The translations under genes were made by a program, and so were the position numbers. A DNA stretch of 64,000 bases. It comes from a virus. Below, in pieces: positions 28,897 to 58,379 of the stretch. Every line of letters starts with the position of its first letter. Position 1 is the first letter of the stretch. The notes under the pieces are model-generated. The model did not search any database. It saw only the letters and a program-made list of their open reading frames with translations, and was not told the DNA's origin. Location: IMG/VR virus record IMGVR_UViG_3300027736_000027, positions 46,951-110,950 of that record; one strand, 5' to 3'.

Positions 28897-29056
28897 CAAG
28901 TTCAAAGACTTCATTTAAATTTTCATTAGTCTCATTTATTAAAAGTTTTAAATAGTACATATATTCATAATAAGGTAATTCATATAGACTATTAAATGAT
29001 TGATTAAGCTTCACTGCCAGAATCCGGTTAATATCAAATAAGTTCGTCAAGTCCAC
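28877..29056 (-). CDS. Unlisted 59-aa ORF, T4 gp51-like baseplate hub assembly/chaperone segment
   Basis: Hand translation VDLTNLFDINRILAVKLNQSFNSLYELPYYEYMYYFKLLINETNENLNEVFELEPNRPA; overlaps the end of the gp26-like gene; below the ORF-track cutoff. Confidence 0.6.
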   Translation of the reverse strand: MDLTNLFDINRILAVKLNQSFNSLYELPYYEYMYYLKLLINETNENLNEVFELEPNRPA

Positions 29057-30041
29057 CTGAAATAAGGAAAAAATCCCTAAACGTGAAGCTGGACTGTGTA
29101 AAAAGAGGTGATGTTACCTTGTTTCCACAATTTGGACAAACTGTATTTACAACAGATTCTCTAGCATTTTCTATTAATTCGGTAAACTTTTTAATAAATG
29201 TAAATTTATTAATATGCCAAGCATAAGAGGTATTAATCAAGTTATAATATTCCTGTTGAGTAAATGACTGCCAGTCTTGAATTAAATAGGATGATACTGA
29301 TAAAAATGCCATATCTGGTTTTCGATTTTTAGATCGAGCCTCAGCAATTCTGGCCCTTAATCGTTCAATTGCTCCAATCGTTGGCATATATAAATAAAAA
29401 GTCTCATTTAATTTTTCGGACTTTACTTCAAAGCATCTATATTCAGCTGAATAATATTTCATTACTTCCTCAGGTAAGTCAATAAAGTTTAACATTGAAC
29501 TCTTAATCTTAACTGAGTCTTTCCATTTAACCGGGCCTTTACATGATTCAGTACACTCAAATTCTGCAAATAATGAATTTTGATCAGCCGGAAATGTTAA
29601 TTCTTGAATTAGAAAAATAATAGCAACTCTATCTAATTCTGAAATATCTCTCCATGATAACCATGAAGTTCCGCCTTTTATTTTAAATCGACTGCACTTT
29701 TCAATAACATAATTTAGTTTATCATCAATATCTAATATGTCAGAGTCATCAATGGTAGACCAGTGTCTAATTTCAGCAACTGTTGCTGCCTTTATTGTAA
29801 TCTCTGCACCTGCTGGATAAAATAGTCCTTTACTTGGCAGGTTTTCAATTGGAATATTTTTCCAAAGTGAATCATTTGGGCCGCCAATTGTAGACTCTAG
29901 CATTGGAGTTAAGGCATTACCTAATGAGGTAACTGGAGCAGGTTGAGCTACCTTTTTAATATCAACATTTTTTCCGTAAATCTTATCTTGATTTTCCAAA
30001 AAAAGTGCAGCCTCATCTAATGGTTGTTCTTCTTCTATCAT
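29034..30041 (-). CDS. Baseplate hub assembly protein, T4 gp26-like
   Basis: NLPSKG..Y, CxxxC and CPNCG metal motifs, terminal FRDFF. Confidence 0.65.
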   Translation of the reverse strand: MIEEEQPLDEAALFLENQDKIYGKNVDIKKVAQPAPVTSLGNALTPMLESTIGGPNDSLWKNIPIENLPSKGLFYPAGAEITIKAATVAEIRHWSTIDDSDILDIDDKLNYVIEKCSRFKIKGGTSWLSWRDISELDRVAIIFLIQELTFPADQNSLFAEFECTESCKGPVKWKDSVKIKSSMLNFIDLPEEVMKYYSAEYRCFEVKSEKLNETFYLYMPTIGAIERLRARIAEARSKNRKPDMAFLSVSSYLIQDWQSFTQQEYYNLINTSYAWHINKFTFIKKFTELIENARESVVNTVCPNCGNKVTSPLFTQSSFTFRDFFLISGGLDELI

Positions 30042-39504: not shown

Positions 39505-39886
39505 GGGGGCGACCGGATTTGACGTTAGTTATCCAATTGAGTCTGCATGTCGAGGATGATACTTAAAGCTCGTAAACCTGGTATTACTGTAAGTTAATTG
39601 ACAACAATATAACTTTCTGGAGCCTTGTTAACCAAGTTAACACTCCAGCTACTGAAGAGCTTTTATTAGCTGCATAAGTGGTAAGCGGCAACTGCTTAAG
39701 TAACCCAAAGTTGCAAACCGATATGATCAATATCGTTAAAAGTGATATAGAAGATAAGTTCTCAGTAAACCGACCTATTCAATAAGGGAACTGTGAAGTT
39801 TGTTAGTTTAGCAAAATTAACTAAGCATGTAAACGAAGGCCTAATTTGAGGCTATACGGACGAGGTTTCGAATACCTCCGCCTCCA
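39505..39886 (+). ncRNA. ssrA: tmRNA
   Basis: 5' GGGGGCG pairs with 3' CGCCTCC-A, giving the G3-U alanine identity pair; GACCGGATTTGAC D-loop-like start; T-arm GAGGT-TTCGAAT-ACCTC; internal tag ORF 39600-39677 ending LLLAA-stop. Confidence 0.93.
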
Positions 39887-39898
39887 CTGTGACTGTTT

Positions 39899-42857: not shown

Positions 42858-45182
42858 CTATACGAGACCAAGTATCGTCTTTAATTGAGATATTACTGAG
42901 TCTGCGGTAATTAATTTAGAACATTCAAATTGTCTATCTGTACCTTTGTGTATCGGACACCAATTCCAGTCACTTGGATCTAACCTGTGTGTATTAAAAC
43001 AACCTGCACATTTACCAGCCGGCGAACAAATTCTAGTGGTATTGGTAAGTGGTTCAGTATAGGCATGTGAGAATCCTGAAATTAAGATAGTTGGAGTTCC
43101 TAGTGCCCAAGCTAACCAACTCAGACCGCTGCCGATTCCAATAAAAGCCTCAGATTTTGAAATTTCAGAAATAGCCGCCTCAATTGGACCGCTTGGTAAT
43201 TTTCTAATACCAGTAGGCTGAATATTTCCCATGAAACCTGAATCTTCTCTTGAAATTAGGACAACTTCATAATTATGGGAACTACACCAGTCAACAACCT
43301 CTTGCCAACCAGTTGGATTATTCCAATATTTAGCCTGACATGTTGCATGAATTGCAATTGCAACCTGTTTCTTTTTAGTTTCAGTTGGAATACTTAATTT
43401 TGGAACAACTTCTTGATAGTCAAGCCCTAAAATATCAAATGCAGTTTTTTGCATTGGTTGATTTTTAGTTTCATTAGGATTCATATTTGGATTTAATTCT
43501 TCATTTTCACCATAATACCACCCAATTGAGTATAGGGCTTTTACATCGTGTACTTCATCTCCCGGTTTAATAAATTCTATTTCTGGATAGGTTTTTTCAA
43601 AAAAATCATTTTGAAAAGTAGAGCATATAACTTTACACTTGTGTTTTTTACGAAATTCTTCAACTGCTGGAAACCAGGCTAGGGTATCACCTAATGATTT
43701 TGAATCAAGCGAAATATAGACACGTTTATCTAATAGATCTAATTTTTTGTTAAACACAATTTCTCCGGACGAAAGGTCTTTTACGGTTATTAACCAGTCA
43801 ATAAAATAGGTTTTACTGGTTTTAATCCACATACTATTTGAAATTTCTCCAGAGTGTTCAACTTTGCCGGTTGATTGATTTATAAATTCAACCCAATATT
43901 GATTAGGATCGCCTCCGGATAACTCAATATGTGCGCCTCTAACAAAATGATGGCCAATATTTAGCGGTTTGCTAGCAGCTGAGTTCACACGGTTAATGAT
44001 TTCAGACTGACTATTAATATGATCCATTGTCTCTTTTGCAATTTTATCCCAATTAAAATTTTTATGAATTTCCTTGGCCTGGGATAGTGCCTCCTTTTTA
44101 TATTTAGCCCAATTGGTATAGGCAGATCTCATTACCTTTGCTAGGTCTACAAAGTCAGGCTCATAATAGTTTCCAATACTCTCATTAAAATGAGCATAGG
44201 TACTTTCACTAATCGGCCTTTCACCAACTATTTTAACTGGTAAACCTTTACCTTCTGCAAATTCTAATTGAGCTGAGCAGTTTGAATAGATTGATGGAGT
44301 TCCACAAGCCATTGCCTCAATTAATGGAAGATTCCAACCTTCGGCTCGGGCACATGAAAGAAATACGTTAGTTGACTTTAATAATTTAATATATTCTTCT
44401 CTAGGTGGTAGGTGTAATACTTTAAGGCGGTCATCAGTAAAGTTATAATGGGCAAGTCTCTCTTCTGTACCGGTTAGCCCATCACCAGAGTATGGATTAT
44501 CAATACTTAATATTAGGTCAACTGGTTCATCTTTTGAAAATTCAGATAAAAAAGTTTCTATTAATTCCTTGGTTGACTTTCGGTAATCCCATCTTCCAAA
44601 TATAGAAAAGGTAAATCTGCCATTACTTGTTAGTGGATGGCTAACCTCTTCTGGAAAAAATATTTCAGAGTCAACGCCTTCTGGTATAACAAATATTTTA
44701 TCAGCTGGATAACCTTGAGCAATCGTACAGTCACGTTGCCATTTTGAAGGAACCCATAATTCATTAAAGTCTAATAGTCTATTAAAAAAAGCTTCAGGTT
44801 GTAAAGTTGATTCCCAAACATTATAGGCAATTGAATAGCCTTGATAGTCTTGATAAAAATAGTGATGATTTGTTTCATTTAAAACTACGTTAATATCTGC
44901 TTTGCCTGGATTATGCCAATTTTTATAAATTGGATAGTCAGACAGCCGCTTATTATGATCCCATAAACTTTGTTGAACTAACATTGTTTTTAGGGTATTA
45001 TCTAAATACGGCTCACCATTATGTGGTTCATCTGAATAATTAGTCCAGCTTTTACCTATTGTAAAATTTCTAACTTCAACTGGTGTATACTTTGATAGGG
45101 TTTTAAAAAATGACTGAGCATGATTATTATAACCGGTGGTTCCAATAAACGAAGTATGAGCCTTTATTTTTAAATTTGACAT
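42858..45182 (-). CDS. Fusion of a GT4 (GT-B) glycosyltransferase and an Aah/TibC-like autotransporter O-heptosyltransferase domain
   Basis: N-half: VWEST, WVPSKW, GRWDYRK, EGWNLPLIEAMACGTP. C-half: SLGDTLAWFPAVEEFRKKH, KYWNNPTGW, FIGIGSGLSWLAW and Cys cluster CAGCFN...WCP.H.GTDRQFECSK. Confidence 0.85.
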   Translation of the reverse strand: MSNLKIKAHTSFIGTTGYNNHAQSFFKTLSKYTPVEVRNFTIGKSWTNYSDEPHNGEPYLDNTLKTMLVQQSLWDHNKRLSDYPIYKNWHNPGKADINVVLNETNHHYFYQDYQGYSIAYNVWESTLQPEAFFNRLLDFNELWVPSKWQRDCTIAQGYPADKIFVIPEGVDSEIFFPEEVSHPLTSNGRFTFSIFGRWDYRKSTKELIETFLSEFSKDEPVDLILSIDNPYSGDGLTGTEERLAHYNFTDDRLKVLHLPPREEYIKLLKSTNVFLSCARAEGWNLPLIEAMACGTPSIYSNCSAQLEFAEGKGLPVKIVGERPISESTYAHFNESIGNYYEPDFVDLAKVMRSAYTNWAKYKKEALSQAKEIHKNFNWDKIAKETMDHINSQSEIINRVNSAASKPLNIGHHFVRGAHIELSGGDPNQYWVEFINQSTGKVEHSGEISNSMWIKTSKTYFIDWLITVKDLSSGEIVFNKKLDLLDKRVYISLDSKSLGDTLAWFPAVEEFRKKHKCKVICSTFQNDFFEKTYPEIEFIKPGDEVHDVKALYSIGWYYGENEELNPNMNPNETKNQPMQKTAFDILGLDYQEVVPKLSIPTETKKKQVAIAIHATCQAKYWNNPTGWQEVVDWCSSHNYEVVLISREDSGFMGNIQPTGIRKLPSGPIEAAISEISKSEAFIGIGSGLSWLAWALGTPTILISGFSHAYTEPLTNTTRICSPAGKCAGCFNTHRLDPSDWNWCPIHKGTDRQFECSKLITADSVISQLKTILGLV

Positions 45183-45231: not shown

Positions 45232-45600
45232 TTAAAATGATAAAGGTACCCATTCAGATAGGGTTTCATTCCAAGTATAGTGACCACTACTTGGATAGGT
45301 TACTTGTGATTTCCATTTAAAATTAGCATCTAATACCCAACTCGGAAAGGGTTTAGGTGAAATAAAAACATTATTAATTTCATTCCAGGTGTCTCCTATT
45401 CCTGCATATTTACTTCTAAAATTTGAATTATAAGAGGTTTGTCTTACCGTATCATAATCATAAATACCTTTAATATTTAAAGAGTCTATTAAGTCAATAC
45501 CTAATTGTTCAACCTCAACTCCATTATCTGTAATTGTAGTATTATCAATAACAATTACGGCAACTACAATATTTTCTTTTATCAGTGCAAAATGTGCCAT
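45232..45600 (-). CDS. Small phage fibre-associated protein
   Basis: MAHFA...NIVVAVIV, QTSYN.NFR.KYAGIG and PKPFPSW; this family usually follows Gly-rich fibre genes. Confidence 0.6.
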   Translation of the reverse strand: MAHFALIKENIVVAVIVIDNTTITDNGVEVEQLGIDLIDSLNIKGIYDYDTVRQTSYNSNFRSKYAGIGDTWNEINNVFISPKPFPSWVLDANFKWKSQVTYPSSGHYTWNETLSEWVPLSF

Positions 45601-46575
45601 TTATTGGAATTTATATTTTATAATTACTACGCCTGATCCACCATTACCTCCATGTAAATAGCCTCCACCCGCTTCTCCATATCCACCTCCTCCACCACCG
45701 GTGTAATCAGTTCCATCTACTCCATTTGCGCTCGAGCCTCCAGTTGCTCCAGCTCCTCCACCGCCAGTACCACCAGCGCCGGCTGACCCGCCTGTATAGG
45801 TTGAACCACCGCCTCCGCCTCCGTAATAGTTACCATCAATTGCTGCTAAAACGCCTGTACCGCCATCACCTCCGTAAACTATACCACTATAATATCCATT
45901 TCCTCCAACTGCACCAGCTCCTCCACCGCCGCCTGCACCATAGTTACCTTTTCCTAATTCTCCTGTTCCATCTCCTCCTGTATTACCTTGACCGGCTGTA
46001 CCCGAAGCTCCGGCTATTGATGAACCATTACCGGTAACACCCGCGCCACCGCCACCTGATCCACCAGATAATGGTGCGGCATAATGTGCACCACCTCCAC
46101 CTCCACCATATGCTGTATTACTATCAAAAGATGAATTTGTACCAGTACTACCAGTATTAAAATAGTAATATGCACCGGCTCCACCACCACCAACTGCTAC
46201 TGAATAGGTTGTTGCTCCTGAAGATAAAGCATAACTTGTGTTTTCAATGACGCCGCCGCCACCTCCACCTCCACCGATATATTGTCCACCTCCTCCACCA
46301 CCTCCTGCAACAATTAATACTTGAAACTTATTATTTGGAGCAGTTCCAACTGTACTAACTACAAAGTTTGTACTACCTACACTAGTAAATGTATGTATTT
46401 TATAATTACCAGAAGTTGTTACGGTTCCGCCAGTTGCTGAAGTAAATCCACCAGAGGTTGTTGTAGTGGTAGTTGATATAACTGGAAGGGCTACTCCAGA
46501 TATTTTTGTTATAGAGGCTCGAGCAATTCCATTAATTTTAGTAATACTGGTAGTAGCTACTCCTTTAATTTTCAT
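45601..46575 (-). CDS. Glycine-rich (polyglycine-II-type) fibre/adhesin protein
   Basis: HTFT, VLIVAGGGGGG, many GGGGG runs and terminal GGSGVVIIKY. Confidence 0.75.
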   Translation of the reverse strand: MKIKGVATTSITKINGIARASITKISGVALPVISTTTTTTSGGFTSATGGTVTTSGNYKIHTFTSVGSTNFVVSTVGTAPNNKFQVLIVAGGGGGGGQYIGGGGGGGGVIENTSYALSSGATTYSVAVGGGGAGAYYYFNTGSTGTNSSFDSNTAYGGGGGGAHYAAPLSGGSGGGGAGVTGNGSSIAGASGTAGQGNTGGDGTGELGKGNYGAGGGGGAGAVGGNGYYSGIVYGGDGGTGVLAAIDGNYYGGGGGGSTYTGGSAGAGGTGGGGAGATGGSSANGVDGTDYTGGGGGGYGEAGGGYLHGGNGGSGVVIIKYKFQ

Positions 46576-46585
46576 AAACCGTGTG

Positions 46586-49500
46586 TTATAATTCTATCCA
46601 AGAGCTTTCAGGATTAAAATGTATTATTATTTTTGTATTCGTATTGCTGCTCCAAAATGTATGCCCTATTAATCTAACCGCATTTCCAACCGTTGTTGGT
46701 GCTGTTTTAGTCATACTGCCGGCAGTCGTAGCCATATATAAAGGCTCTCCAGATTTTACAACAGCTGCATAAGTAGCAGTTTCAACAAATCCATTAATTA
46801 ATATAGAAGTTGGATTGGTTGATGTTGAAGATTTAACACAAATACCTAACATATTAAATGCAGCTGCTGAGTTTGCTGCGGTTGCATCAGCTAATATCCA
46901 AGTGTTGGTTTGTGTCCTATAACATAATTGGCCAAAGGTAATTGTTCCTCCTGCTGTTTCTGAATATAGTACAGTACCTTGATAATAATTACTAGTCCAT
47001 GAATTTAAATCTCCAAGTACAGAGGTTACTCCATCTTGTATTGTTCCAGCTAATGGAGTTGGATTATATCCAGCAACTAATGAAGTTGTTGTCGCTTTTA
47101 TATTAGTTCCATCATCCGTTATTGTTGAATTACCAACAGTTGAAGAAGATGTGAATTTAACAAGGGTATTATTTGTTCCAGAAACAGCAACAGAAGTACC
47201 GCTAGAACCTGAAGTTCCAGAAGAACCACTTGACCCATTTGAACCAGTTGCACCACTAGAACCTGAAGTACCACTAGACCCACTTGAACCAGTTGCACCA
47301 CTTGATCCACTAGAACCTGAAGAACCAGAAGTTCCAGAAGAACCGTTTGACCCGGTTGCGCCACTAGAACCTGAAGAACCTGAAGTTCCACTTGAACCAT
47401 TTAAACCGTTTGAACCAGTTGCACCGGACGTACCGCTAGAACCTGAAGAACCTGAAGTTCCGCTTGAACCGTTTGAACCAGTTCCGCCTGATGTACCAGA
47501 AGTTCCATTTACTCCAGAAATACCTGAAGTACCTGAACTGCCACTAATACCAGAAGTTCCACTTGAACCGCTTGAGCCTGATGTTCCTGAACTACCGCTT
47601 GAACCTGAGCTGCCGCTTGTTCCACTTGAACCAGAAGAGCCTGATGTTCCAGAGCTACCGCTTGAACCTGATGTTCCACTAGAGCCATTTGACCCAGTTG
47701 CACCTGACGTACCAGAGGTTCCGCTTGAACCATTTATACCAGAAGTTCCACTTGAACCTGACGAACCTGAAGAACCGGAAGTTCCTGAACTACCACTAGA
47801 ACCTGAAGAACCTGAACTACCGCTTGAGCCTGAAGAACCAGAAGTTCCACTTGAACCTGAAGTTCCGCTTGAACCATTTGCACCGTTTAAGCCAGACGTA
47901 CCACTTGAACCTGAGTTACCGGAAGTTCCACTTGACCCGCTAGAACCTGAATTACCAGAAGTACCGCTTGAACCATTTGCACCAGAAGTACCAGAAGTTC
48001 CATTTACTCCAGAAATACCAGAAGTACCACTTGAACCGCTTAAACCTGATGTTCCAGAACTACCACTTGAACCTGAAGAACCAGAAGTTCCACTTGAACC
48101 AGAAGTTCCGCTTGAACCTGAACTACCACTTGAACCTGATGTACCTGAGCTACCACTTGAACCAGAAGTTCCAGATATTCCAGATGTTCCACTTGAACCT
48201 GATACGCCTGATGTTCCAGAACTACCGCTTGAACCGGAAGAACCTGAACTACCGCTTGAACCTGAAGAACCGGAAGTCCCACTTGAACCTGAAGTTCCAG
48301 AGCTACCGCTTGAACCTGATATACCAGAAGTTCCACTAGAACCATTTATACCAGAAGTACCGCTTGATCCTGAACTACCACTTGAACCTGATGTACCTGA
48401 GCTACCGCTTGTTCCACTTGAACCAGAAGAACCAGAAGAACCGTTTGAACCAGTTGCACCAGATGTACCAGATGTACCATTTATTCCTGAAATACCAGAA
48501 GTACCGCTTGAACCTGAAATACCAGAAGTACCGCTTGAGCCTGAACTACCGCTTGAGCCTGATGTTCCACTTGAACCACTTGACCCAGAAGTTCCACTTG
48601 AACCTGAGATACCGCTTGTTCCACTTGAACCAGAAGAACCTGATGTTCCACTTGACCCGGAACTACCGCTTGAACCAGAAGTTCCGCTTGAACCGCTTGA
48701 TCCAGAAGTTCCGCTTGATCCAGATTCACCACTTGAACCAGAAGAACCTGAACTACCACTTAAACCTGAGCTACCGCTTGTTCCACTTGAACCAGAAGTT
48801 CCAGAAGAACCATTTATACCAGAAGTTCCTGAACTACCGCTTGAGCCGGAAGTTCCACTAGAACCATTAGACCCAGATGTTCCAGAAGAACCTGAAGTTC
48901 CACTTGAACCATTTATACCAGAAGTACCGCTTGAACCCGATGTTCCGTTTATTCCTGAAATACCAGAAGTACCGCTTGAACCTGATATACCGCTTGAACC
49001 AGAAGAACCAGAAGTACCGCTTGAACCTGACGAACCGCTTGAACCTGAACTACCGCTTGAACCTGAAGTTCCAGAAGAACCAGCTGTACCAGAAGTACCG
49101 CTTGAACCAGAAGTTCCACTAGAACCAGAAATACCGCTTGAACCGCTTGAACCGGACGAACCACTTGAACCTGATATACCAGAAGTTCCGCTTGAACCTG
49201 AACTACCGCTTGAACCTGAAGAACCGGAAGTACCATTTATTCCTGAAATACCAGAAGTTCCGCTTGAACCACTTGAACCAGAAGTTCCAGAAGTTCCACT
49301 AGAACCAGAAGAACCTGATGTTCCACTAGAACCAGAAGTTCCACTAGAACCAGAAGTTCCACTAGAACCAGAAGAACCAGAAGTTCCACTAGAACCACTT
49401 GAACCTGAAGTTCCACTTGAACCATTTATACCCGAAGTTCCTGAACTACCATTTATACCTGACGTTCCTGAACTGCCGCTTGAACCAGAAGTTCCACTTG

Positions 49501-52500
49501 AACCTGAAGAACCTGATGTTCCGCTAGACCCACTAGAACCTGATGTTCCGCTAGACCCAGAAGTTCCACTTGAACCATTTATACCCGAAGTTCCACTTGA
49601 ACCATTTATACCCGAAGTTCCGCTTGAACCGTCTATTCCATTTACTCCGCTTAATCCACTTGAACCAGATGTTCCTGAACTACCGCTTGACCCTGATGTT
49701 CCAGAGCTACCACTTGAACCAGACGTACCACTTGAACCGTTTATACCACTTGTTCCGCTTGAACCGTTTATACCACTGGTTCCGCTTGAACCAGAAGTTC
49801 CACTAGAACCAGAAGAACCAGAAGTACCGCTTGAACCGGAAGAACCAGACGTTCCACTCGATCCTGAAGAACCAGAAGTTCCACTTGATCCTGATGTTCC
49901 ACTTGAACCGTTTATACCACTGGTTCCACTTGAACCAGAAGTTCCACTTGAACCAGAAGAACCAGACGTTCCGCTTGAACCAGAAGTTCCTGAAGAACCT
50001 GATACACCGCTTGATCCACTAGAACCAGAGGTTCCGCTAGAACCGCTTGAACCAGAGGTTCCGCTTGAACCGCTTGAACCAGATGTTCCACTTGAACCAG
50101 AGGTTCCAGAAGAACCATTTATACCGGAAGTTCCGCTTGAACCGGATATACCAGAAGTTCCGCTTGAACCGTTTATACCTGAGGTTCCAGAAGAACCAGA
50201 TGTTCCATTTATTCCTGAAATACCCGAAGTACCACTTGAACCAGAAGTTCCTGAAGTTCCACTTGAACCAGATGCACCGCTTGATCCTGAAGAACCAGAA
50301 CTACCACTTGATCCTGAAGAACCTGAAGTTCCGCTTGATCCTGAAGAACCAGAAGTTCCCGAACTACCACTTGAACCGGATGTTCCACTTGATCCTGAAG
50401 AACCAGAAATTCCACTTGAACCAGAAGAACCTGAAGTTCCACTTGAACCAGAAGAACCTGAAGTTCCACTTGAACCTGAAGAACCTGAAGTTCCACTTGA
50501 ACCTGAAGAACCTGAAGTTCCACTTGAACCACTTATTCCTGAAGAACCAGATGTTCCACTAGAACCATCGGAACCTGAAGTTCCACTTGAACCGCTTGAA
50601 CCAGAAGTTCCACTTGAACCAGAGCTGCCACTTATTCCACTTGAACCTGATGTTCCGTTTATTCCTGAAATACCAGAGGTTCCAGAAGAACCAGTTGCAC
50701 CGCTTGAACCAGAAGTACCCGAAGTTCCTGAGCTACCGCTTGAACCTGATGTTCCACTTGAACCGCTTGATCCAGAAGTTCCAGAAGAACCAGATGTTCC
50801 TGAACTACCACTTGAACCGGCTGTTCCACTTGAACCAGAATTTCCACTAGAACCAGAAGTTCCACTAGATCCATCAAAACCAGAAGTTCCAGAAGAACCA
50901 GAAGTTCCGCTTGAGCCTGAAGTTCCTGAGCTACCGCTTGAACCAGAGGTTCCGCTAGTCCCACTTGAACCTGAAGTTCCAGTAGTACCAGAAGTTCCGC
51001 TTGAACCTGAAATACCAGAAGTTCCAGAACTACCGCTTGAACCATCTGAACCAGAAGTTCCTGAACTACCGCTTGAACCAGATGCACCACTTGATCCTGA
51101 AGAACCAGAAGTTCCACTAGAACCAGATGTACCATTTATTCCGGATATACCAGAAGTACCAGAAGAACCGGAATTTCCGGAACTACCACTTGAACCAGAG
51201 GTTCCACTTGAACCTGAAGAACCAGAAGTTCCACTTGAACCTGAAGAACCAGAAGTTCCAGAAGTTCCAGAACTACCGCTTGAACCAGAAGTTCCACTAG
51301 ATCCATCAAAACCAGAAGTTCCGCTTGAACCGGAAGTTCCTGAAGAACCTGAAATACCAGAAGTTCCTGAAGAACCTGATGTTCCGCTTGAACCTGAATT
51401 ACCGGAACTACCACTTGAACCAGAAGAACCAGAAGTTCCATTTATTCCAGAAATACCTGAAGTACCACTTGAACCATTTATACCAGATGTTCCTGAAGAA
51501 CCAGAAGTTCCACTTGAACCTGAAGAACCAGAAGTTCCTGAAGAACCGCTTATTCCTGAAGAACCTGATGTTCCCGAACTACCACTTGAACCAGAAGTTC
51601 CTGAACTACCACTTGAACCAGAAGTTCCACTAGAACCATCAAAACCAGAAGTTCCACTTGAACCTGAAGTTCCACTAGAACCATCGGAACCTGAAGTTCC
51701 ACTTGAACCTGAAATACCAGAAGTTCCTGAAGAACCAGAGGTTCCTGAAGAACCAGATGTACCATTTATACCTGAAATACCTGAAGTTCCACTTGAACCG
51801 GAAATACCAGAAGTGCCGCTTGAACCATTTAAACCTGAAGTTCCACTAGAACCTGATGTACCAGATGTGCCGCTTGAACCTGAAGAACCTGAACTACCAC
51901 TTGAACCGGAAGAACCATCATTACCAGAAGTTCCACTTGAACCTGAAGTTCCAGAAGAACCAGAAGTCCCACTTGAACCTGATATACCAGAAGTTCCTGA
52001 GCTACCGCTTGAACCTGATATACCAGAAGTTCCTGAGCTACCGCTTGATCCTGAAATTCCACTTGAACCAGATGTACCATTTACTCCAGAAATACCTGAT
52101 GTTCCAGAAGAACCATTTATACCAGAGGTACCACTTGAACCTGAAGAACCAGAACTACCGCTTGAGCCTGAAGAACCAGAAGTTCCACTTGAACCAGAAG
52201 TTCCTGAGCTACCGCTTGAGCCTGAAGAACCAGATGTGCCGCTTGAACCTGATGTACCAGAAGACCCGTCTATTCCACTTGATCCAGAAGTTCCGCTTGA
52301 ACCTGAAGAACCAGAAATTCCACTTGAACCGGAAGTACCGGAAGTTCCACTTGAACCATTTATACCAGAAGTACCACTTGAACCTGAAGAACCGGATGTA
52401 CCATTTATTCCTGAAATACCAGATGTTCCACTAGAACCATTTATACCGGATGTTCCCGAACTACCACTAGAACCAGAGGTTCCGCTTGAACCAGAAGAAC

Positions 52501-55500
52501 CAGAAGTTCCACTTGAACCTGAAGAACCAGAACTACCGCTTGAACCATCTGAACCTGAAGTTCCTGAGCTTCCACTTATTCCTGATGTTCCACTTGAGCC
52601 ATCTGAACCAGATGTTCCACTTGATCCAGCTAAACCAGAAGTTCCGCTTGATCCGCTTGAACCAGATGTACCGCTTGAACCCGATGTTCCACTTGAACCT
52701 GAACTACCACTTATTCCGCTTGATCCTGAAGTACCGTTTATTCCAGAAATACCTGACGTTCCACTTGAACCGTTTATACCAGAAGTACCACTTGAACCTG
52801 AAGAACCAGAACTACCACTAGAACCAGAGGTTCCACTTGAACCAGAAGAACCAGAAGTTCCACTTGAACCGGAAGTTCCAGAAGAACCAGAAGTCCCACT
52901 TGAACCAGAAATACCTGAACTACCACTAGATCCATCGGAACCAGATGTTCCGCTTGAACCTGAAATACCAGAAGTTCCGCTTGATCCAGAAGTTCCTGAA
53001 CTACCACTTGAACCTGAAATACCACTTGAACCGGATGTACCACTTGAACCGGATGTTCCATTTACTCCAGAAATACCAGAAGTTCCACTTGAACCATTTA
53101 TACCAGAGGTTCCGCTTGAACCAGAAGAACCAGAAGTTCCACTTGAACCTGAAGAACCAGAAGTTCCACTTGAACCTGAAGTTCCTGAAGAACCAGAGGT
53201 TCCTGAAGATCCAGCTGTTCCACTTGATCCAGAAGAACCAGAAGTTCCACTTGAACCGTTTATACCAGATGTTCCACTAGAACCAGAAGTTCCGCTTGAA
53301 CCATCTGACCCGGCTGTTCCTGAAGTACCGTTTGAGCCTGAAGTTCCTGAGCTACCGCTTGAACCAGAGCTACCACTTATTCCACTTGACCCTGATGTAC
53401 CATTTATTCCAGAAATACCTGAAGTACCGCTTGAACCGTTTATACCCGAAGTTCCACTTGAACCTGAAGAACCGGAAGTTCCACTTGAACCTGAGCTACC
53501 ACTTGTTCCACTTGAACCTGATGCACCTGATGTACCAGAAGTTCCTGAGCTACCGCTTGAGCCTGAAGAACCAGATGTGCCGCTTGAACCTGATGTACCA
53601 GAAGACCCGTCTATTCCACTTGATCCAGAAGTTCCACTTGAACCGGAAGAACCAGATTCACCGCTTGAACCAGAAGTTCCGCTAGAGCCTGAACTACCTG
53701 AAGTTCCACTTGAACCGGAAGTTCCATTTACTCCAGAAATACCGGATGTACCGCTTGAACCATTTATACCACTTGTTCCGCTTGAACCAGAAGTTCCACT
53801 AGAACCGCTTGAACCAGAAGTTCCGCTTGAACCAGATTCACCACTTGAACCGCTTGATCCTGAGGTTCCGCTTGAACCAGATGTTCCACTTGAACCTGAT
53901 ATACCAGAGGTTCCACTTGAACCAGATGACCCATCAAAGCCTGAAGTTCCACTTGAACCAGATGTACCGCTTGAACCGCCTATACCACTAGATCCAGAAG
54001 TTCCACTTGAGCCATTTATACCTGATGTACCACTTGAACCAGAAGAACCGGCCGTACCGTTTATTCCTGAAATACCAGAAGTTCCAGAAGAACCATTTAT
54101 ACCGGATGTTCCAGAACTACCACTTGAGCCAGATGCACCACTTGAACCTGAAGAACCAGATGTACCACTTGAACCTGAAGAACCTGATGTTCCAGAAGAA
54201 CCATCAGAACCGGAAGTTCCTGAACTACCACTTATTCCGGATGTTCCACTTGAACCATCTGAACCAGATGTTCCACTAGAACCAGCTAAACCAGAAGTTC
54301 CACTAGAACCAGCTAAACCAGAAGTTCCACTTGAACCGGAAGTTCCAGAGCTACCACTTATTCCGGATGTTCCACTTGAACCTGAAGTACCGTTTATTCC
54401 AGAAATACCTGATGTTCCACTTGAACCGTTTATACCAGACGTACCACTTGAACCTGATGTTCCGGAACTGCCGCTTGAACCTGATGTTCCACTTGAACCG
54501 TCTATTCCTGAAGAACCAGAAGTTCCACTAGAACCGGATATACCTGAAGTTCCTGAGCTACCGCTTGAACCATCAGAACCTGAACTACCGCTTGAACCGG
54601 ATATACCAGATGTACCGGAGCTACCGCTTATTCCTGAAGTACCACTTGAACCTGAAATACCACTTGAACCGGATGTACCACTTGAACCGGATGTACCACT
54701 TGAACCGGATGTACCATTTACTCCAGAAATACCCGATGTTCCAGAAGAACCATTTATACCAGATGTTCCACTTGAACCTGATGTACCAGAAGAACCAGAT
54801 TCACCACTTGAACCAGAAGAACCAGAAGTTCCACTAGAGCCTGAACTACCGCTTGACCCATCAGAACCGGAAGTTCCACTTGAACCTGCTGTACCAGAAG
54901 TACCGCTTGAACCTGAACTACCACTAGATCCATCGGACCCAGAAGTTCCACTTGAACCATCAGAACCGGAAGTTCCTGAGCTTCCACTTATTCCTGATGT
55001 TCCAGAAGAACCGGAAATTCCACTTGAACCAGAAGTTCCGTTTATTCCAGAAATACCAGAAGTCCCACTTGAACCTGAAATACCTGAGCTACCGCTTGAA
55101 CCATCATTACCTGATGTACCGGAAGTTCCACTTGAACCTGATATACCTGATGTTCCAGAACTGCCGCTTGAGCCTGAACTGCCGCTTGAGCCGGATATAC
55201 CGGAAGTTCCGGAGCTACCGCTTGAACCATCAAAACCTGAAGTTCCACTTGAACCGGATATACCAGATGTACCAGAGCTACCGCTTATTCCTGAGGTTCC
55301 ACTTGAACCTGAAATACCGCTTGAACCTGATGTACCATTTATTCCAGAGATACCTGATGTTCCGCTTGAACCATTTATACCACTTGTTCCACTTGAACCT
55401 GATGTACCAGAAGAACCGTCTGAACCAGATGTTCCAGCTGTACCGGATGTACCTGAAGAACCAGATATACCGCTTGAACCTGAAGTACCAGAGCTACCAC

Positions 55501-58144
55501 TTGAACCGGAAGTACCACTTGAACCGTCTATTCCCGAAGAACCAGAACTACCGCTTGAACCTGAAATACCAGAAGTTCCACTTGATCCCGATATACCAGA
55601 AGTTCCACTTGATCCCGATATACCAGAAGTTCCACTTGAACCAGATGTACCATTTATTCCGGATATACCAGAAGTACCAGAAGAACCTGAAATACCCGAG
55701 CTACCACTTGAACCAGAAGAACCAGAAGTTCCACTTGAACCAGATGAACCGCTTGAACCGGAAGAACCAGAACTACCGCTCGAACCAGCCGTACCAGAAG
55801 AACCAGCCGTTCCTGAAGTACCACTTGAACCGTCTATACCGCTTGAACCTGATGTACCGGAGGTACCATTTACCCCTGAAGTTCCTGAGCTACCACTTAT
55901 TCCTGATGTTCCTGAGCTACCACTTATTCCGCTTGAACCTGAAGTACCGTTTATACCAGAAATACCAGAAGTGCCACTTGAACCATTTATACCGCTTGTT
56001 CCACTTGAACCCGATGTACCAGAAGAACCAGAAGTTCCGCTTGAACCAGATTCACCACTTGAACCGCTTGATCCTGAGGTTCCGCTCGAACCAGAAGAAC
56101 CAGAGCTACCGCTTATTCCACTTGAACCTGAAGTTCCAGATGAACCGTCAATTCCAGAAGTACCGCTTGAACCTGAAATACCGGAGCTACCGCTTGAACC
56201 TGAAGTTCCTGAGCTACCACTTATTCCACTTGAACCTGATGTTCCATTTATTCCTGAAATACCAGAAGTTCCGCTTGAACCATTTATACCACTTGTTCCG
56301 CTTGAACCATTTATACCAGACGTACCACTTGAACCTGATGTTCCAGCTGTACCAGAAGTTCCGCTTGAACCATCTGAACCTGATGTTCCTGAGCTACCGC
56401 TTGAACCAGAAGAACCGCTTGAACCTGAAGAACCAGAAGTTCCACTTGAACCTGAAGAACCAGAAATTCCACTAGAACCAGAAGTTCCAGAAATTCCACT
56501 TGTTCCACTTGAACCTGAACTACCGCTTATTCCACTTGAACCTGATGTTCCATTTATACCAGAAATACCGGAAGTTCCGGAAGAACCATTTATACCAGAA
56601 GTACCACTTGAACCAGATGTTCCTGAACTACCGCTTGAACCATCTGAACCGGAAGAACCACTTGAACCAGAAATACCCGAACTACCACTTGAACCGTCAG
56701 AACCTGATGTACCAGAAGTTCCATTTGAACCTGCTGCTCCATTTATTCCTGATATACCTGAAGTTCCAGAAGAACCATTTATACCACTTGTTCCACTAGA
56801 ACCGGCCGTTCCACTAGAACCAGAAGTACCGGAAGTTCCGCTTGAACCATTAGACCCAGAGGTTCCAGATGAACCAGAAGTTCCGCTTGAACCAGATGTT
56901 CCATTTATACCGGAAATACCAGAAGTACCGCTTGATCCATTTATACCACTTGTTCCACTTGAACCATTAGAACCAGAAGTTCCACTAGAACCATTAGACC
57001 CAGAAGTTCCAGACGAACCAGAAGTTCCACTTGAACCGGCTGTACCAGAAGTACCGTTAGAACCAGACGTTCCGTTTATTCCTGAAATACCCGAAGTTCC
57101 ATTTGAACCCGACGTACCGCTTGAACCAGAAGTTCCACTTGATCCTGAGGTTCCACTTGAACCGCTTGATCCTGAGGTTCCACTTGAACCAGAAGAACCA
57201 GAGCTACCACTTAAACCATCAGAACCCGAAGTTCCACTTGAACCAGAAGAACCAGAGCTACCGCTTGAACCTGAAGTTCCAGAAGAACCGTCTATACCAG
57301 ATGTTCCCGAGCTTCCGCTTAAACCTGAAGTTCCAGAGCTTCCACTTGAACCCGATGTACCAGAAGAACCAGAAGTTCCGCTTGAACCAGATGTTCCAGA
57401 CGAACCTGCTGTTCCTGAGCTTCCGCTTAAACCTGAGGTTCCAGAGCTTCCACTTAAACCTGAGGTTCCAGAAGAGCCACTAGTTCCACTTGACCCAGTA
57501 ATACCTGATGTACCAGACGTTCCACTTGTACCTACACTATCCGCAAGGGTATCACCAATATAATAAAAACCACGAATATATGGATTAATTGTTCCATAGG
57601 TTGAAGTTAAATAGGTAACCATTGAATCTGATAATAATAAAAGACCATTATCATAATTAAATACCCAGCTTACCTCAGTGCCAGCATTAGCCGTTGTTGT
57701 AATTTGAGTACCGCCACTTGCTGGATCTCCATTCCAGAATTCAATAGCCCAACCGATTGATGGTGAGCCGCTTGCTTGTAAAATCTTTTGAGGTTGAATC
57801 CAATCAAGTATTTGCGTTGTTATATCTCCATATGTACCGGCTACTACCCAGGTAGTATTATTACCAGATATAACTTGAGTTAATCTTATTCCAGTGGTAT
57901 ATGCATTTGCAACTATTCCATCTAGTGGATTACCGTTACCTAACAGAGCAAGAGCTGCTGCCTTATTTGCAACTGGGTTAGATTTAATTGCAGCAAACTG
58001 AGTTAATACCCTATTTGCTGCGATATTTGGATTAAAAGCAAATTTGGCCTCATACCAACTAAAATTAGAGGCAGCATCTATTACGTTTGCTGCTTGAACT
58101 TTAAATACGAGTTTTAATCTTTCACTATCAGTATATCCGGCCAT
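46586..58144 (-). CDS. Giant 3852-aa Ser/Gly/Thr-rich collagen-like (Gly-X-Y) fibre protein
   Basis: ~204-aa N-domain, 3447 aa of G-[STI]-[SND] triplets, and a ~200-aa C-domain resembling capsid cement/decoration domains. Confidence 0.85.
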   Translation of the reverse strand: MAGYTDSERLKLVFKVQAANVIDAASNFSWYEAKFAFNPNIAANRVLTQFAAIKSNPVANKAAALALLGNGNPLDGIVANAYTTGIRLTQVISGNNTTWVVAGTYGDITTQILDWIQPQKILQASGSPSIGWAIEFWNGDPASGGTQITTTANAGTEVSWVFNYDNGLLLLSDSMVTYLTSTYGTINPYIRGFYYIGDTLADSVGTSGTSGTSGITGSSGTSGSSGTSGLSGSSGTSGLSGSSGTAGSSGTSGSSGTSGSSGTSGSSGSSGTSGLSGSSGTSGIDGSSGTSGSSGSSGSSGSSGTSGSDGLSGSSGSSGSSGTSGSSGSSGTSGSSGTSGSSGTSGSNGTSGISGINGTSGSNGTSGTAGSSGTSGSSGTSGSNGSSGTSGSNGSSGTSGINGSSGTSGISGINGTSGSSGTSGSSGTSGSNGSSGTSGTSGSSGTAGSSGTSGINGSSGTSGISGINGAAGSNGTSGTSGSDGSSGSSGISGSSGSSGSDGSSGSSGTSGSSGTSGINGSSGTSGISGINGTSGSSGISGSSGSSGTSGISGTSGSSGISGSSGSSGTSGSSGSSGSSGSSGSSGTSGSDGSSGTSGTAGTSGSSGTSGINGSSGTSGINGSSGTSGISGINGTSGSSGISGSSGTSGSSGSSGISGSSGTSGIDGSSGTSGSSGISGSSGSSGSSGTSGSSGSSGESGSSGTSGSSGTSGSSGTSGINGSSGTSGISGINGTSGSSGISGSSGTSGISGSSGTSGVNGTSGTSGSSGIDGSSGTSGTAGSSGTAGSSGSSGSSGSSGSSGSSGTSGSSGSSGSSGISGSSGTSGISGINGTSGSSGTSGISGSSGTSGISGSSGTSGISGSSGSSGSSGIDGSSGTSGSSGSSGTSGSSGISGSSGTSGTAGTSGSDGSSGTSGSSGTSGINGSSGTSGISGINGTSGSSGISGSSGTSGISGSSGTSGISGSSGTSGFDGSSGSSGTSGISGSSGSSGSSGSSGTSGISGSSGTSGTSGNDGSSGSSGISGSSGTSGISGINGTSGSSGISGSSGTSGISGSSGTSGSDGSSGTSGSDGSSGSSGSSGTSGTAGSSGTSGSDGSSGSSGSSGTSGSSGSSGESGSSGTSGSSGTSGINGSSGTSGISGVNGTSGSSGTSGSSGTSGSSGISGSSGTSGISGSSGTSGISGSSGSSGSDGSSGSSGTSGISGSSGTSGSSGIDGSSGTSGSSGSSGTSGSSGTSGINGSSGTSGISGINGTSGSSGTSGISGSSGTSGSSGTSGLAGSSGTSGLAGSSGTSGSDGSSGTSGISGSSGTSGSDGSSGTSGSSGSSGTSGSSGSSGASGSSGSSGTSGINGSSGTSGISGINGTAGSSGSSGTSGINGSSGTSGSSGIGGSSGTSGSSGTSGFDGSSGSSGTSGISGSSGTSGSSGTSGSSGSSGESGSSGTSGSSGSSGTSGSSGTSGINGSSGTSGISGVNGTSGSSGTSGSSGSSGTSGSSGESGSSGSSGTSGSSGIDGSSGTSGSSGTSGSSGSSGSSGTSGTSGASGSSGTSGSSGSSGTSGSSGSSGTSGINGSSGTSGISGINGTSGSSGISGSSGSSGSSGTSGSNGTSGTAGSDGSSGTSGSSGTSGINGSSGTSGSSGSSGTAGSSGTSGSSGTSGSSGTSGSSGSSGTSGSSGSSGTSGINGSSGTSGISGVNGTSGSSGTSGSSGISGSSGSSGTSGSSGTSGISGSSGTSGSDGSSGSSGISGSSGTSGSSGTSGSSGTSGSSGSSGTSGSSGSSGSSGSSGTSGINGSSGTSGISGINGTSGSSGISGSSGSSGTSGSSGTSGSSGSSGTSGLAGSSGTSGSDGSSGTSGISGSSGTSGSDGSSGSSGSSGSSGTSGSSGSSGTSGSSGSSGTSGINGSSGTSGISGINGTSGSSGSSGTSGINGSSGTSGTSGSSGISGSSGSSGTSGSSGIDGSSGTSGSSGTSGSSGSSGSSGTSGSSGTSGSSGSSGSSGSSGSSGTSGINGSSGTSGISGVNGTSGSSGISGSSGSSGTSGISGSSGSSGTSGISGSSGTSGSSGTSGSSGTSGNDGSSGSSGSSGSSGSSGTSGTSGSSGTSGLNGSSGTSGISGSSGTSGISGINGTSGSSGTSGSSGTSGISGSSGTSGSDGSSGTSGSSGTSGFDGSSGTSGSSGSSGTSGSSGSSGTSGSSGISGSSGTSGSSGSSGTSGSSGTSGINGSSGTSGISGINGTSGSSGSSGSSGNSGSSGTSGSSGTSGISGSSGTSGSSGTSGFDGSSGTSGSSGSSGTSGTSGSSGSSGTSGSSGSSGTSGSSGSSGNSGSSGTSGISGINGTSGSSGTSGSSGSSGASGSSGSSGTSGSDGSSGSSGTSGISGSSGTSGTTGTSGSSGTSGTSGSSGSSGTSGSSGTSGSSGTSGFDGSSGTSGSSGNSGSSGTAGSSGSSGTSGSSGTSGSSGSSGTSGSSGSSGTSGTSGSSGATGSSGTSGISGINGTSGSSGISGSSGSSGTSGSSGSSGTSGSDGSSGTSGSSGISGSSGTSGSSGSSGTSGSSGSSGTSGSSGSSGTSGSSGSSGISGSSGSSGTSGSSGSSGTSGSSGSSGTSGSSGSSGSSGSSGSSGASGSSGTSGTSGSSGTSGISGINGTSGSSGTSGINGSSGTSGISGSSGTSGINGSSGTSGSSGTSGSSGSSGTSGSSGSSGTSGSSGSSGVSGSSGTSGSSGTSGSSGSSGTSGSSGTSGINGSSGTSGSSGTSGSSGSSGTSGSSGSSGTSGSSGSSGTSGSSGTSGINGSSGTSGINGSSGTSGSSGSSGTSGSSGSSGTSGSSGLSGVNGIDGSSGTSGINGSSGTSGINGSSGTSGSSGTSGSSGSSGTSGSSGSSGTSGSSGSSGTSGINGSSGTSGINGSSGTSGSSGSSGTSGSSGSSGTSGSSGTSGSSGTSGSSGSSGTSGTSGSSGSSGTSGISGINGTSGSSGSSGSSGSSGTSGISGSSGSSGSSGSSGISGSSGTSGSSGTSGTAGSSGTSGSSGSSGSSGSSGSSGTSGSSGSSGISGSSGTSGISGINGTSGSSGTSGINGSSGTSGSSGTSGSNGSSGTSGSSGSSGTSGINGSSGTSGSSGTSGSSGLSGSSGSSGSSGESGSSGTSGSSGSSGTSGSSGSSGSSGTSGSSGSSGTSGISGSSGTSGSSGSSGTSGSSGSSGSSGTSGISGSSGTSGISGINGTSGTSGATGSNGSSGSSGSSGTSGSSGTSGSSGSSGSSGTSGINGSSGTSGISGSSGSSGTSGSSGTSGSSGSSGSSGSSGSSGSSGTSGVSGSSGTSGISGTSGSSGSSGTSGSSGSSGSSGTSGSSGTSGSSGSSGSSGTSGLSGSSGTSGISGVNGTSGTSGANGSSGTSGNSGSSGSSGTSGNSGSSGTSGLNGANGSSGTSGSSGTSGSSGSSGSSGSSGSSGSSGTSGSSGSSGSSGTSGINGSSGTSGTSGATGSNGSSGTSGSSGSSGTSGSSGSSGTSGSSGSSGSSGTSGSSGSSGTSGISGSSGTSGISGVNGTSGTSGGTGSNGSSGTSGSSGSSGTSGATGSNGLNGSSGTSGSSGSSGATGSNGSSGTSGSSGSSGSSGATGSSGSSGTSGSSGATGSNGSSGSSGTSGSSGTSVAVSGTNNTLVKFTSSSTVGNSTITDDGTNIKATTTSLVAGYNPTPLAGTIQDGVTSVLGDLNSWTSNYYQGTVLYSETAGGTITFGQLCYRTQTNTWILADATAANSAAAFNMLGICVKSSTSTNPTSILINGFVETATYAAVVKSGEPLYMATTAGSMTKTAPTTVGNAVRLIGHTFWSSNTNTKIIIHFNPESSWIEL
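47192..57532 (-). repeat. 10,341-nt coding repeat = 1149 x 9 nt (Gly-X-Y), synonymously diverged, with a ~300-340-nt higher-order period
   Basis: Distance from the first to the last triplet is an exact multiple of 9; the GISG[IV]NGTS marker recurs periodically. Confidence 0.9.
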
Positions 58145-58151
58145 TTAATTA

Positions 58152-58379
58152 TTAAATTATTTCAGGTGTTTCATCTATTTCATTTGAAGGTACTATAGTA
58201 TTTTCATCAATTTCTAAGCTAAATAGCTGAGCTTGATATTCAGCAACCATAATATTAAATTCGTTTAGACTAGTTTTAAATACATTAACCATTTCATCTG
58301 AAACCTTCATACTTAAAGACACTGACTGTTTTTCTTTATTTATTTTTACTTTTAGTTTTTTATCAAAGCTTTTTTCCAT
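58152..58379 (-). CDS. Small hypothetical protein
   Basis: 75-aa ORF between the two Ser/Gly-repeat genes. Confidence 0.6.
   Translation of the reverse strand: MEKSFDKKLKVKINKEKQSVSLSMKVSDEMVNVFKTSLNEFNIMVAEYQAQLFSLEIDENTIVPSNEIDETPEII

Follow-up and report, generated by a model that had tools for sequence, protein, structure and literature searches.

The stability of collagen is usually credited to proline and hydroxyproline or to charge pairs. How, then, could a collagen-like rod of 3,447 residues which is under selection, and which has neither of these, be built, and what would it serve for? This question is raised by a giant gene in a stretch of 64,000 nucleotides of viral DNA (positions 46,951 to 110,950 of the IMG/VR virus record IMGVR_UViG_3300027736_000027; hereafter, the window is this whole stretch). 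The source contig is a fragment of 110,950 bp, estimated to be 41% complete. The explanation favored here, with moderate confidence, is that three copies of the gene product make up a virion fibre, with an N-terminal anchor, a glycosylated rod of collagen type and an exchangeable tip, in an uncultured, AT-rich jumbo myovirus whose complete relatives measure ~271 kb. Such a sugar-coated, collagen-like fibre, which could reach ~1 micrometre, would probably serve the phage to catch its host. The triple-helical state and glycosylation of the rod, like the orientation and function of the whole fibre, are inferred here from the gene, its relatives and its neighbours. The gene and its repeat are as follows.

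46586..58144, minus strand: giant fibre gene P0001, 3,852 amino acids; open throughout, with the sense frame under purifying selection
47192..57532, minus strand: Gly-X-Y rod, residues 205-3651, 1,149 triplets without proline; putative triple-helical rod and glycan acceptor

The Gly-X-Y repeat and its length

A script run on the translated open reading frame (ORF) found all 1,149 of the 1,149 G-X-Y triplets to be consecutive, in an unbroken register over 10,341 nt (1149 x 9). Only 11 residue types are used in the rod, from which Pro, Lys, Arg, His, Cys, Met, Trp, Tyr and Gln are entirely absent. The X position is occupied by Ser (576), Thr (369), Ile (149), Ala (14), Leu (13), Val (10), Asn (7), Glu (5), Phe (5) and Gly (1), and the Y position by Ser (1006), Asn (82), Asp (33), Ala (17), Thr (10) and Gly (1). 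X is thus Ser, Thr or Ile in 95% of the triplets, and Y is Ser in 88%, with Asn or Asp in a further 10%; two triplets, GSS (544) and GTS (355), make up 78% of the rod. The two positions are asymmetric, with hydrophobic residues confined to X and Asn and Asp nearly confined to Y. Ser and Thr account for ~57% of the rod residues, which corresponds to ~1,960 Ser/Thr per chain.

The unmodified fibre monomer has a mass of 321 kDa and an isoelectric point of 4.05, and the computed span of the rod is 986 nm if each residue contributes 0.286 nm. A sequence-only reading of this DNA had placed an in-register Gly repeat at 47192-57532, had described it as free of Pro, Lys and Arg with mostly Ser and Thr plus Ile, Asn and Asp at X and Y, and had put its potential span at ~1 micrometre. 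The scripted register runs over the same coordinates without a break, and the composition count and the computed span agree with that description. In a scan of residues 1-715, the Pfam family Collagen (PF01391) is matched with 247.1 bits (cut-off 27.2; E 7e-75). The stabilisers typical of collagens are lacking: the 3,447 rod residues include no Pro, no Lys, Arg or His, and 38 Asp or Glu, and in this respect the rod stands apart from PF01391.

The motif GISG[IV]NGTSG occurs 27 times in the rod, mostly at distances of 33-38 triplets, which points to an old super-repeat of ~36 triplets (~324 nt). This super-repeat, whose Ile-rich marker is GINGSSGTSGISG[IV]NGTSG, is regular from triplet 107 to triplet 709 and would measure ~31 nm if triple-helical. 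Rod indels relative to the closest relative have sizes near multiples of it (36, 69 and 147). The super-repeat may be a mere duplication unit, or else a periodic site of binding or association.

An extreme length in a metagenome contig might be produced by repeat expansion or mis-joining during assembly. The low complexity of the protein would invite such an artefact, and block indels make the repeat of the nearest relative 280 triplets shorter. The DNA of the rod is, however, degenerate, with all six Ser codons and all four Gly codons in use; its longest exact repeat is 102 bp, and 75-mers are 99.5% unique and 151-mers all unique. The reading frame is unbroken throughout. In addition, the orthologous gene is present in four independent IMG/VR assemblies from other samples, in which the same N-terminal domain is followed by 869 (L003), 554 (G003), at least 952 (G002) and 1,014 (G004) triplets. 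It is considered highly unlikely that assembly created the length. The order of magnitude of the repeat length can be taken as secure from these sequence comparisons; the exact count of 1,149 is not secure.

The rod of L003 is uninterrupted like that of the window, and those of G002, G003 and G004 are split by globular inserts of 111-178 residues. The records of G004 and G005 are 271 kb each and estimated to be 100% complete. The inserts lie at residues 1270-1442 and 3360-3470 in L015 (G004), 414-585 and 1174-1322 in L005 (G003), and 1176-1324 and 1805-1982 in L004 (G002). Two recurrent types among them start with AGQ[IV]YYFNQSV... and PTGLVAS[ND]YVVQGYLAANQT..., respectively. It is possible that the inserts serve as hinges or nodes in the rods of these relatives.

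The rods of the window and L003 can be aligned over 825 triplets with 95.8% nucleotide identity, and all indels between them consist of whole triplets, from 1 to 147 units. Codon changes differ sharply among the three positions: 63 synonymous and 0 non-synonymous at Gly, 43 and 42 at X, and 108 and 12 at Y. The register, the constraint on Gly and the X/Y asymmetry argue for a defined structure rather than a linker. The opposite strand of the repeat is open as well.

47151-57563, plus strand: antisense ORF of 3,470 amino acids, rich in Pro and Glu, (Pro-Glu/Val/Leu-x)n; a shadow of the repeat

Naive ORF finders would call a gene here. As a gene it was rejected, as its constraint is weaker (141 synonymous versus 107 non-synonymous differences, compared with 214 and 54 in the sense frame against the L003 orthologue) and it lacks flanking conserved domains. 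The sense frame alone runs into conserved terminal domains.

Proposed glycosylation and triple helix

Downstream of the fibre gene lies a gene for a glycosyltransferase with two domains.

42858..45182, minus strand: two-domain glycosyltransferase of 774 amino acids, with Pfam and PHROG matches, 1.4 kb downstream of the fibre gene
44010-45146, minus strand: GT4 domain, residues 13-391, with Pfam and PHROG matches
42873-43970, minus strand: TibC/Aah-type O-heptosyltransferase domain, residues 405-770, from the TIGR04414 match and the TibC alignment

TIGR04414 (hepto_Aah_TibC) is matched with 273.8 bits, compared with a curated cut-off of 200, and the match covers model positions 8-374 of 374. 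The alignment with TibC (4RAP) has an E of 4.8e-58. In TibC, Asp110 is catalytic and four Cys form an iron finger (PMC4358343). The LGD motif of the 774-residue enzyme is aligned with L108-G109-D110 of TibC, with conservation of the catalytic Asp110, and the positions of all four iron-finger Cys (C339, C342, C358 and C370 in TibC) are Cys in this enzyme. By these sequence features, its C-terminal half is a true member of the BAHT family.

The distribution of the enzyme follows that of the rod. The TIGR04414 family is present in all six lineages with a Ser-rich Pro-free rod (the window group, G003, the G004 group, G007, G013 and G008) and in none of nine records with a homologous fibre but no such rod (Fisher p = 2e-4); these nine include three complete genomes and three records with collagen of the GPT or GFQ type. 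An autotransporter acceptor, which is typical of BAHT enzymes, was not found in the contig, where the nearby Ser-rich proteins are two collagen-like fibres. Also, no second glycosyltransferase gene was found in 58-64 kb, the single glycosyltransferase gene bearing two glycosyltransferase domains.

Most likely, on this evidence, the GT4-TibC enzyme O-glycosylates Ser and Thr of the rod. As the adjoining gene encodes a TibC/Aah-type protein O-heptosyltransferase, O-glycosylation is a serious candidate for the stabiliser of the rod; the idea of the sequence-only reading that it replaces proline is borne out to that extent and no further. A bolder version, which is put forward tentatively and with less than even confidence, is that the rod is an imino-acid-free, micrometre-long collagen helix whose Ser and Thr are hyper-glycosylated by the TibC-type ring enzyme, possibly in a processive manner, with the glycan providing both stability and a sugar coat.

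The same enzyme and composition might serve a rod that is not a triple helix. The chains could be an extended, heavily O-glycosylated tether of mucin type, or another polyproline-II or polyglycine-II assembly, and be joined only by their terminal domains. The absence of Pro and charge pairs, the dedicated protein O-glycosyltransferase and the high share of Ser/Thr in the repeat would all fit such a tether, and the Gly-X-Y contacts described below come from a structure predictor, not from measurement. A mucin-like tether has, however, no need of Gly at each third residue, yet the register is unbroken over all the triplets, Gly codons have no non-synonymous change and the X/Y asymmetry is strict. 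The polyglycine-II bundle, which the sequence-only reading had named as the alternative fold, needs turns; no turns or loops occur along the 3,447 residues, and this fold is left unsupported, although a poly-Gly protein (PF21722) is encoded directly downstream of the fibre gene. Overall, a rod without a triple helix is considered unlikely.

Terminal domains and probable polarity of the fibre

The two ends of the giant protein and the two genes which directly follow it downstream are as follows.

57533..58144, minus strand: N-terminal domain, residues 1-204, phrog_33494 (function unknown); putative virion-attachment domain
46589..47191, minus strand: C-terminal domain, residues 3652-3852; a short beta neck, then a beta-tulip knob, with a predicted trimer
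45601..46575, minus strand: glycine-rich protein of 324 amino acids, PF21722 Gly_rich_2, 33% Gly, nine poly-Gly runs; candidate tip adhesin or partner of the C-terminal domain
45232..45600, minus strand: protein of 122 amino acids, phrog_7759 (function unknown); third member of the tip cassette, possibly an assembly chaperone

The N-terminal domain (N-domain) is 98, 84 and 78% identical in related jumbo-phage contigs, and homologues with 30-38% identity are found in Shewanella and Vibrio myoviruses. It is always N-terminal, in proteins of 500-3,700 residues with a differing remainder; some of these proteins have ~50 Pro-free triplets, others lack them, and they end in unrelated C-terminal domains. 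Its AlphaFold2 model is poor, with a predicted local distance difference test (pLDDT) score of 43.

The C-terminal domain (C-domain) has 2,938 homologues at E<=1e-3 among the 1.8 billion cluster representatives searched, and these are always C-terminal or stand-alone. The AlphaFold2 model has a pLDDT of 82, with the core above 90. In the VIA structural comparison, each of the 13 best neighbours (Z 11.9 to 8.3) is a protein that decorates or cements a capsid; among them are those of HFTV1 (Z 11.9; root-mean-square deviation 3.5 over 123 aligned residues), Pam3 (11.3), FCWL1 (10.4) and TW1 (8.8). The next neighbours are the C-terminal fragment of phi29 gp12 (Z 7.9) and the base of the phi29 head fibre (Z 7.2). 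Foldseek likewise gives cement-type neighbours, and among predicted viral structures the domain is found at the C-termini of tail-fibre-like and collagen-repeat proteins. The match to Pfam Phage_cement_2 (PF09956) is below threshold (19.1 bits versus 24; E 1.7e-3), and the C-domain is the end of a 3,852-residue fibre, not a small stand-alone protein which tracks the capsid. A profile comparison with the bead-forming C-domain of A-1(L) gp82 gave an E of 0.039, which is weak and serves as a lead only.

A trimer is predicted when three copies of 12 triplets plus the C-domain are folded together: the interaction prediction score from aligned errors (ipSAE) is 0.83, compared with 0.00 for the best of three controls. 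The ipSAE mark is reached by 20 of 30 proteins solved as one-chain pairs and by one of 23 solved as single chains; this calibration was made with two copies and the tool's own alignments, so that the counts are only rough for a three-copy run. At least 83% of the contacts agree between runs, with a partner pLDDT of 77 or more. The predicted interface takes in Gly-X-Y residues 2-31 of all three chains. Trimeric cement proteins of the same fold have already been solved, and this likeness may partly explain why the trimer passes. The fibre is thus predicted to be homotrimeric. The sequence-only reading had quoted C-terminal motifs, which are present in the translation, and had compared the domain with cement proteins, which is right at the level of fold; the trimeric protein that it suggested is also what the model predicts.

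Collagen folding is commonly nucleated at a C-terminal trimerisation domain. This, the trimer prediction and the closeness of the fold to the C-terminal fragment of phi29 gp12 would fit a C-domain that acts chiefly as an intramolecular chaperone of trimerisation and registration, in the manner of a foldon or the phi29 gp12 C-terminus, and that is perhaps removed after assembly rather than serving as a host-binding tip. Such a role would be compatible with the glycosylated, tip-bearing fibre favored here. As the chief role of the domain it appears improbable: no cleavage motif was identified, and the tight linkage of the C-domain to a variable Gly-rich protein suggests a lasting tip complex.

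The linkage recurs in other phages. The 324-residue protein matches PF21722 with an E of 1.6e-16; its comparison with the PDB by sequence and profile searches gave matches at chance level only, and none to gp38. At nine loci (L017-L023, L026 and L032), a protein of ~300 residues with 33% Gly is encoded 4-11 nt downstream of the C-domain, also where the fibre has no collagen repeat. Across these loci, the stretches that separate the Gly runs vary, whereas the runs themselves do not. The ~122-residue protein adjoins in eight of the nine, in six of them following the poly-Gly gene and in two preceding the fibre gene; at the nine loci it is 51-93% identical. In other phages, the C-domain and the two downstream genes recur at 57-89% identity. 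The cassette of C-domain, poly-Gly protein and ~122-residue protein moves among unrelated phages regardless of the collagen rod.

The two ends of the fibre differ in what they are inherited with. In G004, TerL is 76% and the N-domain 78% identical to those of the window, yet the C-domain is absent, and the fibre ends in an unrelated domain. G009, a complete 160-kb phage with direct terminal repeats, has a TerL of 27% identity and no N-domain; its C-domain is 87% identical and stands on a 658-residue protein without collagen repeat, which is followed by the same two downstream genes. Also, the C-domain differs from that of L003 by 34 synonymous and 21 non-synonymous changes and the N-domain by 23 and 4, so that more amino acid change is tolerated in the C-domain. 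As its inheritance does not follow the capsid lineage, the C-domain would be an exchangeable distal tip, and the lineage-bound N-domain would be the anchor. This pattern suggests a fibre whose N-terminus is anchored and whose C-terminus faces the host.

The opposite polarity would be that of a head-anchored fibre, in which the beta-tulip trimer at the C-terminus sits on the three-fold sites of the capsid and the N-domain is the free end. The 13 decoration and cement neighbours and the sub-threshold Phage_cement_2 match favor this arrangement, and the phi29 head fibre gp8.5 has a beta-tulip base (PMC7602432); in addition, head fibres are borne by PTm1 and PTm5, two distantly related jumbo phages of Tenacibaculum. 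The C-domain carries, however, no signal of capsid lineage, and its linkage to the Gly-rich and 122-residue genes is like that in the tip cassettes of tail fibres. Its homologues end proteins annotated as tail-fibre-like, including one of the cultured Flavobacterium phage immuto, and the same fold is present in the phi29 gp12 fragment, which comes from a tail appendage. Anchoring to the head via the C-domain, as the sequence-only reading had suggested, is not supported, given the absence of the domain in the close relative G004 and its presence in the unrelated G009, and this polarity is considered quite unlikely.

The proposed fibre, known systems and genomic setting

In the fibre proposed here, the N-terminal 204 residues would dock to the virion, be it at the baseplate, the neck or the head, and the C-terminal knob would trimerise and set the register of the chains, so that three chains could zip up as a helix of collagen type. 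The 1,149 Gly-(Ser/Thr/Ile)-(Ser/Asn/Asp) triplets would form a triple-helical rod of up to ~1 micrometre, which is probably flexible. The GT4-TibC enzyme would glycosylate Ser and Thr of the rod in the cytoplasm, using a nucleotide sugar supplied by the host, and the glycan would compensate for the absent proline and charge pairs, i.e., for residues of low helix propensity. The knob, the Gly-rich protein and the 122-residue protein would constitute the exchangeable distal tip, in which the Gly-rich protein would bind the host. The benefit would be a wider capture radius and a first, reversible contact with the host in dilute water.

Several points weigh against this proposal. In the host-guest peptides of Persikov and Brodsky, Ser, Asn and Asp at Y and Ser and Thr at X are reportedly among the less stabilising residues, and the unmodified rod may be only marginally stable. 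The genes gmhA and rfaE were not found in the window contig (G000) or in the near-complete relatives G003 and G004, suggesting that the donor sugar is supplied by the host or is a different one. The co-occurrence of the rod and the TIGR04414 family is drawn from a small sample, partly of fragments, and the lineages may be partly non-independent. The solved structures closest to the C-domain are all capsid-bound, and it may have a head-binding role. The N-domain has no significant match in Pfam, in a PDB profile search or in the ESM atlas, and its docking role is putative, with its pattern of conservation as the pointer. Finally, block indels of 26 to 147 triplets separate the rod from that of the closest relative; these could reflect either real recombination or an assembly collapse in either record, and the true molecule could have a triplet count different from 1,149.

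Several known proteins share parts of this architecture. EPclA and EPclB of E. coli O157:H7 prophages (PMC3368898) and gp12 of SPP1, which is a capsid binder (cited in PMC7602432), are likewise trimeric, with Gly-X-Y triplets between a conserved N-domain and a C-terminal trimerisation domain, and the triple helix of EPclA has been shown by circular dichroism (PMC3368898). In EPclA and EPclB, the repeat comprises tens of triplets, about half of which have Pro at X, and it includes charged residues (PMC3368898), whereas the rod described here runs to 1,149 triplets that lack Pro and basic residues and have Ser at Y in 88% of cases, and it is paired with a dedicated glycosyltransferase.

BclA of the Bacillus anthracis/cereus exosporium and BclA1 of C. 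difficile also combine a collagen-like rod with a C-terminal trimeric knob. BclA is GPT-rich, with Pro at X. It further differs in having fewer than ~100 triplets, in its location on the spore surface and in being served by other glycosyltransferases. Collagen-like proteins of the BclA type are glycosylated, and the sugar has been suggested to aid a hydration network (PMC8968730).

For the enzyme, the closest parallels are the pairs TibC-TibA and Aah-AIDA-I of E. coli, in which Ser residues of a repetitive, elongated adhesin are hyper-glycosylated in the cytoplasm (PMC4358343). The donor of TibC and Aah is ADP-heptose. The candidate acceptor here is a collagen-like phage fibre and not a beta-helical autotransporter; in addition, the enzyme is fused to an N-terminal GT4 domain, and no genes of the ADP-heptose pathway were found. 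No paper that connects phage enzymes of the BAHT/TibC type with collagen-like fibres was found among the papers searched.

For the tip, residues 3712-3852 share their fold (Z 11.9 to 7.2) and the predicted trimer with the beta-tulip cements of HFTV1, Pam3, TW1 (gp56), P74-26 (gp87) and lambda (gpD) and with phi29 gp8.5. Unlike these proteins, the C-domain is the end of a fibre, is linked to a tip cassette and is swapped between phages with unrelated terminases. The order of genes resembles that of the gp37-gp38 tip of long tail fibres of the T2/S16 type (PMC12032242), in which the C-terminus of the fibre is followed by a protein of poly-Gly runs and variable segments and the cassette is exchangeable. 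The likeness to gp38 is one of architecture only, as sequence and profile searches of the PDB gave no match to it.

Long, flexible accessory fibres that may help early contact with the host are borne by other large myoviruses, as in the neck fibre of Anabaena phage A-1(L) (PMC10966104) and the head fibres of PTm1 and PTm5 (PMC9973310). Those fibres are 50-100 nm long and consist of beads or unknown proteins, with no collagen-like rod. Collagen-like segments of phage fibres and glycosylated collagen-like proteins of bacteria were thus already known. What differs here is the total lack of proline and basic residues, a length 10 to 50 times that of the known examples and a partner of the BAHT family.

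The surroundings of the gene are those of a myovirus structural region, with a T4-type TerL, a baseplate wedge protein and a gp15-like tail protein. By terminase, the nearest cultured phages are Sphingomonas phage PAU and Tenacibaculum phages PTm1 and PTm5 (31-32% identity), and uncultured huge phages reach 34-36%. A GC content of 33% and the connections with Flavobacterium and Tenacibaculum phages hint weakly at a host among the Bacteroidota. In the closest relatives, the gene order is kept: orf318, the 820-residue fibre, orf75, the giant fibre, the Gly-rich protein, orf122 and the glycosyltransferase. The two genes directly upstream of the giant fibre gene are as follows.

58152..58379, minus strand: ORF of 75 amino acids between the two fibre genes; 81-99% identical in L003, L004, L005 and L007
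58395..60857, minus strand: second fibre protein P0163, 820 amino acids, with ~46 Pro-free G-[S/T/I]-S triplets and a C-terminal phrog_31482 region

The phrog_31482 region of the 820-residue fibre is also found in P0007 and, in Shewanella phage 1/4, in the product of the gene that lies upstream of the one for the N-domain fibre. The pair of an 820-like gene and an N-domain fibre gene is retained as far as Shewanella phage 1/4 and Vibrio phage 1.121.O.

Neither Pfam nor PHROG gives a match for most structural genes of the window, and the capsid, portal and sheath genes were not placed by profiles. Between 10000 and 34000, most large ORFs (335-786 amino acids) are without such matches; exceptions are an ATP-dependent DNA ligase (10872-12167) and a weak PHROG match of unknown function (29034-30041). 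A transfer-messenger RNA (tmRNA) gene lies within the structural region at 39505-39889 on the plus strand, with a full-length Rfam RF00023 match (100 bits versus a gathering score of 47); the tag predicted by ARAGORN has 25 residues and ends in LLLAA.

Whether O-glycans and hydration by themselves suffice to keep a triple helix together can be tested directly on this rod, and the link to the BAHT family makes this test practical in E. coli, which makes ADP-heptose. The rod might also find use in materials, as a glycosylatable collagen scaffold which needs no hydroxylase. If the proposed fibre is real, it would represent a second, independent chemical route to collagen and would be among the longest known protein rods encoded by a single gene. 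Virion glycosylation would gain a new enzyme family, and jumbo phages would be seen to spend ~1 MDa per fibre on a device for long-range capture of the host.

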